Source of the DNA: a phage
Length of the DNA stretch: 50,709 bases
Sequence record: NC_105617.1
Direction: 5' to 3' (one strand)
Part shown: positions 30,964-48,920 of the stretch, in pieces
Numbering within the stretch: the first letter of the stretch is position 1
Layout of the letters: each line of letters opens with the position of its first letter
Notes under the pieces: generated by a model
Told to the model about the DNA's origin: nothing
Databases searched by the model: none
Seen by the model: the letters and a program-made list of their open reading frames with translations, nothing else
Position numbers and translations under genes: made by a program

Positions 30964-31211
30964 TGAACGATAAAATGATTCCGGTTAAGTTAACTGATCA
31001 AGGTTTATGGCTGCTTTATCGAGCTACCTGCTGCGAAATTATGGAGAGAAACGGATTGACTCAGGATGTTATTGGTTGCGATCTGTGGGAGTTCACTAGT
31101 TCTCTTGATATGTCTTTCGACGAGATAAAAAGTGAATGCATAGAGAATTGGCCTTCAATCATACAGAAAGACGTGGAAGAACTTAAAGCTGATACAATCG
31201 TAAAGCACTAA
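30960..31211 (+). CDS. Hypothetical protein
   Basis: ATGA overlap with dam stop, RBS GAGGAAAG; 83 aa. Confidence 0.4.
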   Translation: MMNDKMIPVKLTDQGLWLLYRATCCEIMERNGLTQDVIGCDLWEFTSSLDMSFDEIKSECIENWPSIIQKDVEELKADTIVKH

Positions 31212-31250
31212 TTGCTAAAAATACCCGGCGAAAGTCGGGTATAGTTATTT
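31204..31250 (+). promoter_or_regulatory. Box-hairpin-(-10) cassette
   Basis: agcacTAAttgctaaaaa + 22 nt + TATAGT; hairpin tacccg/cgggta. Confidence 0.5.
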
Positions 31251-31277
31251 CATCAAAACGAAATGAGGAATCAGAAG

Positions 31278-32047: not shown

Positions 32048-33199
32048 ATGTCACAAGCTAAAATCACTACCGAGCAACTTATTGAAGAGCGCATGAGCGG
32101 ACTTACACTTCGCGAGATTGCGGAAAAGTACGGCATGCACATTCGCACTGTTGAAGCTCGTCACGCAAAACTTGCAAAGGAAGGTCACTTCCACGGTAAC
32201 GAGCATGTTGCTAAGAACGTACCGGAAGGATTCATGGTAAAAGGCACATCAACGATGATTCGCGGCGATGGGACCGAGGTAGTGCGATGGGTTAAGACCG
32301 ATCAGGACCGTGAGAAGATTGCGGCAATGATGGAAGCAGCGCGTATTGCATTCTGTGAAGACTTGCCGAGAGCAAAACCAACTGAGCTACTCACATCGCA
32401 AGGGCTTACAACCGCTATTGGCAAGCTGGCACTCTACCCGGTGTTCGATCTTCACATTGGCGCGCTCGCTCACAAGCATGAATGCGGAGAGAACTACTCT
32501 ACAGACGTAGCGGAAAAAGTGCTGAATGACTTCTTTAACTACGCGATCGATATTGCCCCGAACGCAGAGAAGGCTGTTCTGTTAATCGGCGGCGACTTCC
32601 TTCACTCAGACGGTCTTGATTCTGTTACCCCGGCAAGCGGTCACGTTCTGGATCAGGATTCACGATATGCGAAATTGGTGCATGTGGCTATTCGATCGGT
32701 GCGAAGAGCTATCGACAAAATGCTGACTAAACACAAAGAGGTCGAAGTTCAGGTTATCGAAGGGAACCACGACCAGGCCGGAATGATTTGGCTACGCGCT
32801 GCAATGGCTGCATACTATGAGGACGAGCCGCGAGTATTCGTTGACGTTAGTCCTATGATTCTGCATAAGACCCGCTGGGGAAATACCTTGTTGGGATACA
32901 CTCACGGTCACACGATGAAAAAGGCAGACACGCGACTTGCAGCGATGGCGGCAGACTTCCGTGCAGACTTCGGTGAAAGCAAATACGTGTATACTCACAG
33001 TGGACACTGGCACCATCAAACAATCACAGAACACTCGTTAGGTATTGATGAGGTTCACGGGCAGTTAGGCGCGAAAGATGCATACGCCGCGCGAGGCGGG
33101 TGGCGCTCATATCGCCAGGCGGCGGTAATCGTTTACGATAAACAGTTTGGTGAAATCGGTCGATTCATCTATCGTCCAGAAATGACAGGATCGCACTAA
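32048..33199 (+). CDS. Calcineurin-like metallophosphoesterase with N-terminal HTH (sigma70 region 4-like)
   Basis: Motifs DLH, GGDFLHSDG, GNHD, GHTH/GHWH; N-terminal LTLREIAEKYGMHIRTVEARHAKL resembles sigma-70 region 4.2 / LuxR-type HTH. Confidence 0.6.
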   Translation: MSQAKITTEQLIEERMSGLTLREIAEKYGMHIRTVEARHAKLAKEGHFHGNEHVAKNVPEGFMVKGTSTMIRGDGTEVVRWVKTDQDREKIAAMMEAARIAFCEDLPRAKPTELLTSQGLTTAIGKLALYPVFDLHIGALAHKHECGENYSTDVAEKVLNDFFNYAIDIAPNAEKAVLLIGGDFLHSDGLDSVTPASGHVLDQDSRYAKLVHVAIRSVRRAIDKMLTKHKEVEVQVIEGNHDQAGMIWLRAAMAAYYEDEPRVFVDVSPMILHKTRWGNTLLGYTHGHTMKKADTRLAAMAADFRADFGESKYVYTHSGHWHHQTITEHSLGIDEVHGQLGAKDAYAARGGWRSYRQAAVIVYDKQFGEIGRFIYRPEMTGSH

Positions 33200-42646: not shown

Positions 42647-43117
42647 ATGACAACCATTACCGTATTTCTTGCTAAAGATGAGCTTGATGGCGAAATGTCA
42701 TTCTTCGCGTTTGAGCACAAGACCGGATCGCACTGGCATGCGTACACTCACTACACGGTTATCTCAATCGAGGCGTTCGAAGGTGATTCACTCACTGATA
42801 AGCTGAGTTATTTTGTTGAAGCGGTTAAGGCTAGCGGCGGCTGTGAGTGGAAAGAAGATCACGAAGTTATGCGAATGCTTGAGATGGTCAATCCGGTTCG
42901 ACTTGAGTCTTTCGAGCTTGATTCTTACGTGAGCATTAAGGTGAGAAAGCCGGGTGAGTTGTTGCCAGGGATGCGTGTGCTGACTGGTTACTCAGGTCGT
43001 AAAGTGTGGCGAACCATATCGAAGATTCGACAGCGCTCAGAAACATGCTACAGCGTGTTCTTTGATGACGGCTGGAATGAGGTTGCTGGTAGTAACGTGA
43101 AGTATCTTACCAAATAG
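42647..43117 (+). CDS. Hypothetical protein
   Basis: 156 aa; stop TAG inside a TAGCAC box. Confidence 0.45.
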   Translation: MTTITVFLAKDELDGEMSFFAFEHKTGSHWHAYTHYTVISIEAFEGDSLTDKLSYFVEAVKASGGCEWKEDHEVMRMLEMVNPVRLESFELDSYVSIKVRKPGELLPGMRVLTGYSGRKVWRTISKIRQRSETCYSVFFDDGWNEVAGSNVKYLTK

Positions 43118-43163
43118 CACGAATTGCTAAAACCGGATCGGGGTATCTTGCTATAGTTACCCC
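43115..43163 (+). promoter_or_regulatory. Box-hairpin-(-10) cassette
   Basis: TAG stop = box start; ttgcta + 22 nt + TGcTATAGT; hairpin ggggta/tacccc. Confidence 0.55.
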
Positions 43164-43196
43164 ATCAAAACGACACACCAATCAGAGGATTTCACC

Positions 43197-45539: not shown

Positions 45540-45746
45540 ATGGCTACACGACTAACTCAGTGGCAGATTTACGACAAGGCCTCACGCCTACGTGAATCAC
45601 TTCGCGGACTGACGCAGAATGACAGAATGGAGATTATCGGGCACGCATTGCACGAACTCACGCCGCCGGACGTAACCTATCATTCATGCGGCAATAAATT
45701 CTGGAACGTGACATTCGAGGTAAAGAAAGATGAGCAAAACTCATAA
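45540..45746 (+). CDS. Hypothetical protein
   Basis: 68 aa from ATG 45540 behind CCAATCAGAGGA leader. Confidence 0.45.
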   Translation: MATRLTQWQIYDKASRLRESLRGLTQNDRMEIIGHALHELTPPDVTYHSCGNKFWNVTFEVKKDEQNS

Positions 45747-46017
45747 GTTAAAAATCGCCCCGATACATTTCATTGGTGTAATGAACGGAACCAAAACGGC
45801 AGAGTTCCGCATCAATGACCGCAACTTCCAGGTTGGTGATATCCTTGAGCTACGCGAGTTCGATCGTGACGAGTTTACCGGGTGGGAAGTTCACGCAAGG
45901 GTATCCGATGTTACCGATGTGACGCCATACATTAATCGCGGGTATGACGATCAAGGATGCGACTTCACGCAATACGTGATGTTATCAATCAAACCTTACA
46001 GGAAGGTTAGACCATGA
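45730..46017 (+). CDS. ASCH/PUA-like domain protein (putative)
   Basis: 95 aa; N-terminal pattern KTHKLKIAPIHFIGVMNGTKTAEFRINDRNFQVGDIL resembles ASCH-type domains; weak. Confidence 0.35.
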   Translation: MSKTHKLKIAPIHFIGVMNGTKTAEFRINDRNFQVGDILELREFDRDEFTGWEVHARVSDVTDVTPYINRGYDDQGCDFTQYVMLSIKPYRKVRP

Positions 46018-46843: not shown

Positions 46844-47046
46844 CAGCAGAAGATGCAGCACGTGAAGCAGTGGAAGGAATGCGACCAAATACCTCCAGAA
46901 TCGCACACTACTACAAATTTGACGTATCGGCAGTGCAATTGGTCCATGAAATTTTAAGGCTCCCACAAGTCGATTCAGCGCGTGTGGTGGCGTGCTTAAA
47001 AAATTATTTTTGCATCACTATTAAAACGAATAGCACGAATTGCTAA
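46828..47046 (+). CDS. Hypothetical protein
   Basis: 72 aa; last five codons (NSTNC-stop) are encoded by a TAGCAC box. Confidence 0.45.
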   Translation: MATIMTAEDAAREAVEGMRPNTSRIAHYYKFDVSAVQLVHEILRLPQVDSARVVACLKNYFCITIKTNSTNC

Positions 47047-47079
47047 AACCTATCAAGGGGAATGCGCTATGATTCCCCT
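47031..47079 (+). promoter_or_regulatory. Box-hairpin-(-10) cassette
   Basis: Box encodes last codons NSTNC-TAA of upstream gene; ttgcta + 22 nt + TATGAT; hairpin ggggaat/attcccc. Confidence 0.5.
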
Positions 47080-47103
47080 ACACCAACGAACGAGGGAATA
47101 CTC

Positions 47104-47550: not shown

Positions 47551-47597
47551 TAGCACGAATTGCTAAAACTTACTCAAGGGCATTTGGTAGAATGCCC
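47551..47597 (+). promoter_or_regulatory. Box-hairpin-(-10) cassette
   Basis: ttgcta + 22 nt + TGgTAGAAT; hairpin gggcat/atgccc; CCAATCAGAGGA leader downstream. Confidence 0.55.
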
Positions 47598-47633
47598 TTC
47601 GTTGAGTTAAACAACCAATCAGAGGAATAAATC

Positions 47634-48167
47634 ATGGATAAAATTACAATTTGGGGTCAAACTATCAACCTGTTTCTCGGTCCGCGCCGCGTCGCAATCT
47701 TTGACTTTGACGGAACACTGAGTGACGGATCAAAGCGCCTTCACCTGTTGCCAAAAAAGGATTTGCACTTGACTGAAAGCTGGTCTGAGTTTAATCGAGC
47801 CGCAATATTTGATAACCCCATCCAGAGCACGATTGAGGTGATGAACTCATTACGCCAAGCTGGGGTGTATGTAATCATTTTAACCGGGCGAAGCGATGAG
47901 GTGCGTTACGCATCTGAGTTATGGCTTAAGCATCACGGTGCGCGATATGATTACTTAGTCATGCGACCGCACACAGACAACCGGAAAGACACAGTGATGA
48001 AAGAGGAAGCGGTGCGAGCGATCGGTATTGAAAACATCCTCGCGGCTTGGGATGATTCACCGCAAATTATTCCATTATTCCGGTCGCTTGGAATAACCAC
48101 ATATGCTGTAGTTGACTATGGCGATAACGTTCACGATCATTTAAAATCGCACGGGGTAGAGAAATGA
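47634..48167 (+). CDS. HAD-superfamily phosphatase (polynucleotide 3'-phosphatase / nucleotidase-like)
   Basis: HAD motif I FDFDGTL, motif II ILTGRSD, DNRKDTVMKEE segment, motif IV AWDDSPQ; resembles the phosphatase domain of T4 polynucleotide kinase as recalled. Confidence 0.6.
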   Translation: MDKITIWGQTINLFLGPRRVAIFDFDGTLSDGSKRLHLLPKKDLHLTESWSEFNRAAIFDNPIQSTIEVMNSLRQAGVYVIILTGRSDEVRYASELWLKHHGARYDYLVMRPHTDNRKDTVMKEEAVRAIGIENILAAWDDSPQIIPLFRSLGITTYAVVDYGDNVHDHLKSHGVEK

Positions 48168-48274
48168 ACCTATACGAATTTATTGCAGCACATCCGGTAT
48201 TGACGGTTATCATCCTGCTAATCATCAATCACACTATCATAAATGTAGCAAAATTATTTTTAGGGAGATACTGA
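48164..48274 (+). CDS. Small transmembrane peptide (micro-ORF)
   Basis: 36-aa ORF MNLYEFIAAHPVLTVIILLIINHTIINVAKLFLGRY; ATGA overlap with phosphatase stop. Confidence 0.3.
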   Translation: MNLYEFIAAHPVLTVIILLIINHTIINVAKLFLGRY

Positions 48275-48275
48275 C

Positions 48276-48848
48276 ATGAAAACAGCTATCGTTTTAAACG
48301 GCGCGCCTGGAGCGGGAAAAGACACTATCGGATGCATCCTGGCTGACACTTACGATCACGTAGCCTTGCGCAGCTTCAAAGCGCCAATGTTTGAGATTGC
48401 CCGGGCAATCCTGGGTGAAGCTAACTACGAGTATTTCATGTTCTTGTATGAGGACCGTCGATATAAAGAAGAGCCAGCATCCATCCTGAACGGTAAAAGC
48501 CCACGCCAGTTTATGATCTGGATTAGCGAGGAAGTCATCAAGCCGCAGTTCGGAAATCGCTTCTTCGGTATGCGAGCGGAAAGCAAGGTGAAAGAGTCAC
48601 ACTCCCTTTCTGTATTTACTGACGGTGGATTCAAAGATGAGATCTTGCAAATGATTGAAGGCGATATCCAGGTCAAGCTATGCCGCATACATCGCAACGG
48701 CTGCAACTTCGATAACGACAGTCGAGATTATATCTACCTGGATGATATGATCGGTGTCAACGGTTATCAGGAATGTGACTTCTTCTCTGTCGAAGGTCAT
48801 CCAGAAATTACCGCTCAGCACATAGCCGCTACGTTCATCAACAAATAG
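48276..48848 (+). CDS. P-loop nucleoside-monophosphate kinase-like protein (dNMP kinase candidate)
   Basis: Walker A GAPGAGKDT at N-terminus; LNGKSP segment; overall resemblance to phage dNMP kinases as recalled. Confidence 0.5.
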   Translation: MKTAIVLNGAPGAGKDTIGCILADTYDHVALRSFKAPMFEIARAILGEANYEYFMFLYEDRRYKEEPASILNGKSPRQFMIWISEEVIKPQFGNRFFGMRAESKVKESHSLSVFTDGGFKDEILQMIEGDIQVKLCRIHRNGCNFDNDSRDYIYLDDMIGVNGYQECDFFSVEGHPEITAQHIAATFINK

Positions 48849-48895
48849 CACTAATTGCTAAAACGTCGGTGGGGTGATTTGATATAGTCACCTCA
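48846..48895 (+). promoter_or_regulatory. Box-hairpin-(-10) cassette
   Basis: TAG stop = box start; ttgcta + 22 nt + TGaTATAGT; hairpin ggtga/tcacc. Confidence 0.55.
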
Positions 48896-48920
48896 TCGAC
48901 AACGAAGAGAGAAAATAGAA

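Follow-up and report, generated by a model that had tools for sequence, protein, structure and literature searches.

A Pnkp-type phosphatase and a T4 gp1-family kinase encoded by a conserved gene pair of a T1-like coliphage: a possible nucleotide-recycling module

We analysed a stretch of 50,709 nucleotides (nt) of phage DNA (sequence record NC_105617.1; hereafter the window), in which three consecutive open reading frames (ORFs) encode a HAD-family phosphatase (ORF1), a membrane peptide (the micro-ORF) and a P-loop kinase (ORF3) (Table 1). A preliminary description of this DNA had placed the three ORFs at these positions, and ORF mapping confirmed all of them. The motifs listed there were also found in the translations, namely FDFDGTL (residues 23-29), TGRSD (84-88), DNRKDTVMKEE (115-125) and AWDDSPQ (138-144) in the phosphatase and GAPGAGKDT (9-17) and LNGKSP (71-76) in the kinase. 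The stop codon of the phosphatase gene and the ATG of the micro-ORF overlap as ATGA, and the kinase ATG sits one base past the micro-ORF stop. On nucleotide comparison the cassette region shows 90-94% DNA identity to many Tunavirus (Drexlerviridae) genomes and the window is, on this evidence, a complete T1-like coliphage genome of Tunavirus. The annotated gene content of T1 and of the close relative phiL includes no polymerase, reductase or thymidylate synthase, and apart from phosphatase and kinase no enzyme of nucleotide metabolism is recognisable in the genome. Furthermore, tblastn of the window with three phage ligases gave no RNA or DNA ligase (best E 0.24) and none is annotated in T1 or phiL, so that the earlier remark on the missing RNA ligase holds.

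Table 1. Positions of the genes and elements discussed (in the window unless another sequence is named; aa, amino acids).
Feature	Position	Strand	Size	Remarks
HAD phosphatase (ORF1)	47634..48167	+	177 aa	homologue of T1 'pnk' (ST64)
Micro-ORF	48164..48274	+	36 aa	single-pass membrane micro-protein gene
Kinase (ORF3)	48276..48848	+	190 aa	P-loop; homologue of T1 ST62
Helix-turn-helix (HTH) + metallophosphoesterase 'DNA repair exonuclease'	32048..33199	+	383 aa	phrog_704 at 7e-157
Fusion P0218	L104 6001-7212		403 aa	phosphatase N-terminal, kinase C-terminal
Fusion P0388			413 aa	phosphatase N-terminal, kinase C-terminal
Fusion P0239	L105 498-1883		461 aa	phosphatase N-terminal, kinase C-terminal
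Standalone Pnkp-type phosphatase, Krischvirus FL15	L101 3998-4474			
HNH endonuclease gene ST63, T1	L003 5465-5959		164 aa	in the micro-ORF slot
Patchwork ORF	L058 5780-6004			micro-ORF-like and HNH-like segments mixed
Tail-encoding indel	L001 5166-5246; L002 4163-4246; L007 1468-1548			lacking in the window at 48165
Upstream boundary element	47551..47599	+		TAGCA-N5-TGCTA mini-palindrome, then variable strong hairpin with -10-like TAGAAT; fold z-score -4.6
Downstream boundary element	48846..48892	+		same kind, begins at kinase stop codon; fold z-score -7.2
Further element copies	31203-31262; 43115-43174; 47031-47090	+		palindrome and hairpin match
Weaker element copies	27679 (+); 37123 (-); 41197 (-)			
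DUF3850 ORF	45730-46017		95 aa	1.6 kb upstream of the cassette

In the Pfam scan ORF1 matched PF25109 (HAD_PNKP) with 61.3 bits over profile positions 3-141 of 143, the curated cut-off being 27.6 bits, and it matched phrog_415 at 3e-65; the other Pfam matches were weaker ones within the HAD superfamily and a single unrelated match at chance level. NCBIfam returned nothing specific for ORF1, the micro-ORF or ORF3. A family profile of 22 relatives found only Pnkp1 (4xrp) and T4 Pnkp (5uj0 and 1ltq) among the PDB sequences. Moreover, with the AlphaFold2 model of ORF1 (predicted local distance difference test score, pLDDT, 84.9) the best 20 Foldseek matches were all chains of T4 Pnkp or Pnkp1, with 5uj0 at 1.3e-9, and the class B acid phosphatase AphA was a weaker structural neighbour. 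The DxDxT motif (D24-F-D26-G-T28) is invariant in the 22 relatives and aligns to T4 residues 165-169. Indeed, D24, D26, T28, R35, T84, R86, D119, K123, D140 and D141 are all invariant or nearly so in the alignment of these relatives. R176, R213, D254 and D277 are also important in T4 Pnkp, and they align to R35, R86, D119 and D140 of ORF1. The catalytic roles in the T4 phosphatase belong to D165 and D167 (Asp nucleophile and Asp general acid), S211, K258 and D278 (PMC3592404), which align to D24, D26, T84, K123 and D141. The T4 ligands of phosphate and Mg2+, Ser211/Arg213, Asp254/Lys258 and Asp277/Asp278, thus have their counterparts in T84/R86, D119/K123 and D140/D141. Family, fold and catalytic residues agree with the likeness to the phosphatase half of T4 Pnkp noted in the preliminary description, and by these lines of evidence ORF1 is a standalone Pnkp-type HAD (DxDxT) phosphatase with a predicted activity on 3'-phosphates.

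ORF1 shares with the C-terminal 3'-phosphatase of T4 Pnkp (PseT) and with Capnocytophaga Pnkp1 the PF25109 family, the fold and the DxDxT, Ser/Thr, Lys and Asp-Asp residues. It differs from T4 Pnkp in standing alone, with neither a Pnkp-type kinase domain nor a ligase partner, and in a longer and strongly conserved cap segment, RLHLLPxKDLHLTESWSEFN, which is particular to the ORF1 subfamily and not present in the T4 enzyme. Since the protein has no kinase domain, the label 'polynucleotide kinase' carried by its homologues is a misnomer. The phosphatase domain of T4 Pnkp occupies residues 157-297 of 301, and the gene partner of ORF1, a gp1-type kinase, is placed downstream; the order is the reverse of that in T4 Pnkp, as had been correctly pointed out before. 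Some relatives carry a 78-nt indel that adds to the phosphatase a C-terminal tail of 26 aa with a zinc-ribbon-like CxH...CxxC pattern, and the 245-aa relative P0187 has two copies of this tail. In the tailed relatives the micro-ORF has GTG at the position of the window's start codon and may begin six codons upstream.

ORF3 matched phrog_139 at 5.5e-46 over profile positions 82-260, and T4 gp1 matched the same family at 1.8e-65 over positions 83-261, practically the same span. With hhalign, ORF3 against T4 gp1 alone gave a probability of 70.7%, in the N-terminal half. Searches of Pfam and of PDB sequences with ORF3 returned P-loop noise only, with no Pfam family above threshold, and a Pnkp-type 5'-kinase domain is not present in the ORF3/ORF1 system. 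The best fold match of the kinase is a characterised deoxynucleoside monophosphate (dNMP) kinase, and its fold agrees with the gp1 type (1DEK) in having a P-loop core, an inserted helical domain and a lid. The ATP site reads G12-A-G14-K15-D16-T17, with G14, K15 and D16 invariant. Hence the phrog_139 match common to T4 gp1 bears out the comparison with phage dNMP kinases made in the preliminary description, while its notion of a split Pnkp is wrong as homology, ORF3 belonging to the gp1 family and not to the Pnkp kinase family.

The residue table of 1DEK (PMC10653934) was mapped to ORF3 via the family alignment, hhalign and the strand order of the model; in the C-terminal half the mapping relies on motifs and strand order rather than on residue-level superposition, and the MAFFT alignment, which misaligns that half, was not used. 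In gp1 the dNMP phosphate is bound by Lys37, Arg68, Arg132 and Arg177 (Table 2 of PMC10653934). According to the family alignment and hhalign, ORF3 keeps the P-loop, R68 (as R61), R132 (R77) and M135 (M80), and by motif and strand order it would further keep D175 (D116), E181 (E122), R197 (R140) and D204 (D148). From the order of the secondary structures we infer that R140, which follows strand 4, stands where gp1 has its lid residue R197. By motif and strand order, gp1 H206 would correspond to R150. Compared with T4 gp1 (1DEK; see also T5 Dnk and Pseudomonas putida PP_1964), ORF3 measures 190 aa instead of 241 aa and its helical domain is reduced; by the mapping it would have an invariant DGGF where gp1 has DTRQ, so that R177 would be missing, F39 for K37 and DSR for DTH in the lid. 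ORF3 is, from these comparisons, a T4 gp1-family P-loop kinase of the dNMP-kinase fold with a putatively modified acceptor pocket. In Pseudomonas putida a kinase of the gp1 family provides the essential thymidylate-kinase function (PMC10653934). Within Tunavirus (window compared with L001-L007) the kinase shows 98-99.5% protein identity, even to T1, and the phosphatase 85-93%, a gap that amounts to a sharp change of constraint or history over ~ 100 nt.

Roles other than the nucleotide recycling proposed below were considered for the pair. In a first alternative the pair would serve a non-orthologous form of end healing, in which the phosphatase clears 3'-phosphates at broken DNA or RNA ends, the gp1-fold kinase is retargeted to the 5'-OH, a host ligase (LigA for DNA) seals and the metallophosphoesterase encoded elsewhere in the window trims, that is, a Pnkp-like system with another kinase and the reverse domain order. 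The phosphatase does belong to the Pnkp family and retains the full catalytic set, in some relatives with the zinc-ribbon-like tail, and by the mapping ORF3 would not conserve in place two gp1 residues that bind the acceptor phosphate, R177 and K37. However, the kinase has its PHROG and its best fold match in common with a characterised dNMP kinase, and neither the T1 and phiL annotations nor tblastn of the window give a phage-encoded ligase. We consider end healing unlikely, though by no means far-fetched.

The apparent loss of part of the dNMP-phosphate-binding set would also suit a conversion of 3'- into 5'-nucleotides, where the phosphatase makes nucleosides from 3'-(deoxy)nucleotides and ORF3, as a nucleoside kinase, makes 5'-nucleotides from them; this would salvage the products of nucleases leaving 3'-phosphates. 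In the classical literature on the T4 3'-phosphatase, enzymes of this type are reported to act on 3'-mononucleotides. AphA, the weaker structural neighbour of ORF1, acts on nucleotides as well, and a fusion of two sequential enzymes, such as those described below, would be natural. Nevertheless, ORF3 keeps two of the phosphate-binding arginines, R68 as R61 and R132 as R77, Pfam and NCBIfam place ORF3 in no deoxynucleoside kinase family, and no 3'-phosphate-producing nuclease was identified in the phage, so that such a conversion appears very improbable to us.

Of the 91 fetched loci, 83 have the two genes on one strand with the phosphatase gene upstream, at gaps from -1 to ~ 2200 nt. Webervirus and Sauletekiovirus carry the pair beside their lysis genes and Tunavirus has it in the early arm, a difference in genome position also remarked on in PMC13164509, and judging from these locations it has been relocated as a unit between genome regions. 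It recurs in the Aeromonas podovirus Lolek (Autographiviridae) and in the unclassified Yersinia myovirus 526-1. A profile search of 1.84 billion representatives gave 5363 kinase relatives, of which the best 150 include two long proteins with PF25109 in their N-terminal half, and a third fusion was found later. The three fusions, P0218, P0388 and P0239, share 37-74% mutual identity and stem from metagenomic phage-like contigs of up to 60.7 kb; in the two whose sequence was read, the linkers of ~ 65 aa (P0218) and ~ 110 aa (P0239) have a GPELHG motif in common. Although rare, the fusions argue strongly for a pathway shared by phosphatase and kinase. Because different phage families keep this gene order and natural fusions occur, the phosphatase-then-kinase pair is, on comparative grounds, a conserved and functionally coupled unit, a point that the preliminary description did not make. 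The layout of the fusions also mimics that of the bifunctional Pnkp, which counts in favour of end healing.

Alternatively, phosphatase and kinase could be two independent genes that remain neighbours through inherited synteny, for instance an anti-defence or host-takeover phosphatase beside an ordinary dNMP kinase, the three ORFs being merely successive early genes. This would agree with the highly variable spacer, which is empty or holds the micro-ORF, an HNH gene or small ORFs over as much as 2.2 kb, with the frequent occurrence of the kinase alone and with the much faster evolution of the phosphatase within Tunavirus. It is less easily reconciled with a pair that moved together between the lysis-gene side in Webervirus and the early arm in Tunavirus, that recurs in three unrelated phage lineages and whose single-polypeptide fusion has persisted down to 37% identity, and we find it quite improbable.

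In Vequintavirus, Chaseviridae, Lahexavirus and others the lone kinase gene is found among genes for ribonucleotide reductase, thymidylate synthase, dUTPase, DNA ligase and exonuclease; the company of the reductase, synthase and dUTPase genes speaks against end healing. In the Escherichia phage FL15 (Krischvirus) a standalone Pnkp-type phosphatase gene follows nrdA-nrdB and overlaps the end of nrdB, and within a few kilobases the same phage also has a full pseT and an RNA ligase gene. Since FL15 keeps pseT and RNA ligase besides it, the standalone form would do a job other than classical tRNA repair, which again goes against end healing and suggests that the FL15 protein is a distinct nucleotide-metabolism paralogue. 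Repair of tRNA against anticodon nucleases was dropped as an explanation for the pair, given the absence of a ligase and the separate full Pnkp kept by Krischvirus for such a role.

Between the two genes, the micro-ORF shows a ratio of nonsynonymous to synonymous polymorphism (pN/pS) of 0.10 over 15 distinct alleles. Its 24 variable sites include 16 third codon positions, and the amino acid changes in 4 of 37 codons in its own frame compared with 18-19 of 36 when the two alternative frames are read. The product would be one hydrophobic helix (core PVLTVIILLII, maximal 15-residue Kyte-Doolittle value 2.69) with a basic C-terminus. By its pattern of variation the micro-ORF is a genuine coding gene, and its hydrophobic core agrees with the transmembrane 36-aa product proposed for it earlier. 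It belongs to no family in Pfam, PHROG or NCBIfam and is annotated as 'hypothetical protein' in the GenBank records of several relatives. In the record of Escherichia phage vB_EcoS_SA12KD, which holds the exact phosphatase and kinase proteins under consecutive accessions, it is apparently unannotated.

Among the loci compared, the micro-ORF occurs in close Tunavirus relatives only. Its slot holds the HNH endonuclease gene ST63 in T1 and 0.7-2.2 kb of unrelated small ORFs in Tlsvirus and others, and it is empty in Webervirus and Sauletekiovirus, where the phosphatase and kinase genes abut or overlap. An ORF of patchwork structure was also observed, on L058. Descent of the micro-ORF from a decayed T1 HNH gene was considered and dropped, the similarity of the slot between the window and T1 not being above chance; the two genes may be related or may simply compete for a single site of insertion. 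From its variation and distribution the micro-ORF is a selected yet dispensable, lineage-specific insert, in alternation with a homing endonuclease gene. The earlier picture of a trio 'bridged' by a membrane peptide was accordingly abandoned, the micro-ORF lying in a variable slot outside the conserved pair.

A further gene of the window is associated with the pair in other phages. The ORF at 32048-33199 shows the motifs DxH, GD, GNHD, H and GHxH, read in alignment, behind an HTH-like N-terminus; it has no Pfam match, no PDB sequence match and nothing specific in NCBIfam, and its assignment as a metallophosphoesterase is based on PHROG labels and the aligned motifs. A phrog_704 homologue directly precedes the pair in Webervirus (72% identity to the window ORF), Sauletekiovirus (67%) and Yersinia phage 526-1 (37%), and the gene beside the P0218 fusion is 44% identical to it. 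In two Aeromonas podoviruses an unrelated metallophosphatase is found at the equivalent place. On the evidence of these neighbourhoods, the putative metallophosphoesterase nuclease is a recurrent third partner of the pair, and one missed by the preliminary description.

The annotation of this partner as a DNA repair exonuclease is a further point for end healing. Moreover, phosphatase, gp1-fold kinase and HTH-metallophosphoesterase might together be a previously unrecognised three-enzyme system acting on nucleic-acid ends and not on free dNMPs, and so a functional analogue of Pnkp with a non-orthologous kinase and the domains in reverse order. Such a system could repair phage DNA that host nucleases have nicked to 3'-phosphate/5'-OH, or it could prepare the host chromosome for digestion by exonucleases. 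The exchange of DTRQ for DGGF would in this case mark the change from a phosphate to a hydroxyl acceptor. We judge this to be decidedly unlikely.

The explanation that we favour, and to which we give about even chances, is that the pair represents co-transcribed enzymes of a recurrent phage module recycling DNA-derived nucleotides. DNA would first be degraded by a nuclease, probably the phrog_704 metallophosphoesterase, and the HAD enzyme would then strip 3'-phosphates that otherwise block further processing or use, its candidate substrates being 3'-phosphorylated ends, deoxynucleoside 3',5'-bisphosphates and 3'-dNMPs. The resulting 5'-dNMPs would be converted to deoxynucleoside diphosphates by the gp1-type kinase, and the host nucleoside-diphosphate kinase would finish the route to the triphosphates. 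In favour of this route are the families of both enzymes, the intact catalytic residues of the phosphatase, the coupling of the two genes, the nucleotide-metabolism neighbours of each in other phages, the phrog_704 nuclease gene beside the pair and the lack of a ligase or further nucleotide-metabolism genes in the genome. T1 and TLS break down host DNA and reuse its nucleotides, the genes responsible being unidentified (PMC11447400), and an enhanced nucleotide supply has already been proposed for the same pair (PMC13164509). Recycling is the most likely role, and it fits the known physiology of T1. The preliminary description had held a role in the nucleotide pool to be at least as likely as end healing, and given the kinase family and the lack of a ligase we judge it the better of the two. 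Base modification or pool remodelling was also considered and dropped: the annotations of the close relatives T1 and phiL contain no hydroxymethylase, glycosyltransferase or deazaguanine genes and offer no evidence for the base-modification role envisaged earlier.

Comparable sets of enzymes are known from other phages. T4 salvages host DNA with the Mre11-like gp47 and the gp46 exonuclease, followed by gp1, and T5 has the Dmp-Dnk pair; here, too, nuclease, phosphatase and dNMP kinase would come together in a phage that consumes host DNA. In contrast to T4 gp47/gp46, the nuclease of the window is one HTH-metallophosphoesterase that lacks a Rad50-like partner. The T5 enzyme Dmp, a 5'-nucleotidase, belongs to another HAD family, whereas the strongest Pfam match of ORF1 is the Pnkp phosphatase family.

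Several observations weigh against nucleotide recycling. By motif and strand order, the counterpart of gp1 R177 in ORF3 is G118, an invariant residue of DGGF, and that of gp1 K37 is F39, with K35 near; since two of the four dNMP-phosphate-binding residues of gp1 are thus unconserved in place, the acceptor might not be a dNMP. Furthermore, the kinase often occurs without the phosphatase in other phages, and the window has its nuclease gene at a distance of 15 kb from the pair. Finally, metallophosphoesterase nucleases normally leave 3'-OH and 5'-phosphate ends, so that the source of the 3'-phosphates is left unexplained.

The trio is flanked by repeated elements, each with a conserved TAGCA-N5-TGCTA, ~ 7-10 nt and a hairpin of varying sequence but kept pairing; a -10-like TAnnnT lies exactly 22 nt after TTGCTA in the copies. 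Five matches are present in the window, the two beside the trio being listed as 47551-47610 and 48846-48905, compared with 0.42 expected by chance, with fold z-scores of -3.3 to -7.2, and T1 carries elements at the same sites. Some copies are annotated as terminators in relatives, though they have no T-run. Because no copy lies inside the trio and one lies on each side, the three ORFs look like one expression cassette, and the element could act as promoter/operator, be a site of processing or mark the limits of cassettes. We take the T4-type 'PeSL' promoter-plus-stem-loop cassettes to be comparable, as there too a repeated intergenic promoter-like sequence and a hairpin flank small gene cassettes; the element of the window differs from them in sequence, in the 22-nt spacing of its -35-like and -10-like parts and in the TAGCA-N5-TGCTA palindrome. 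Upstream of the cassette, the product of the 95-aa ORF matches DUF3850 (PF12961) at 2.8e-16 and phrog_986, labelled 'RNA-binding protein', and it is annotated as ASCH-like in one relative.

Annotations of both genes of the pair in T1 relatives go back years, and a part in nucleotide supply is already in print (PMC13164509). What is added here is the assignment of the kinase to the gp1 type rather than the Pnkp type, together with the fusions, the association of the pair with the nuclease gene as a third member and the micro-ORF as a selected but dispensable insert. For annotation, this means that the phosphatase is called 'polynucleotide kinase' across thousands of phage records despite having no kinase domain, while the kinase is labelled 'hypothetical' in several records, the apparent source record of the window among them. 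T1-type phages are classic and abundant coliphages whose genes for the reuse of host nucleotides have never been assigned (PMC11447400), and a concrete and testable three-gene candidate pathway follows from the conservation of the pair, its fusions and its neighbouring nuclease gene. We see a modest chance that the pair conceals an end-processing enzyme of a new kind: should the acceptor of the kinase prove to be a 5'-OH end, it would represent a new way to build a Pnkp-like enzyme. Otherwise the pair is a solid but ordinary part of phage housekeeping.

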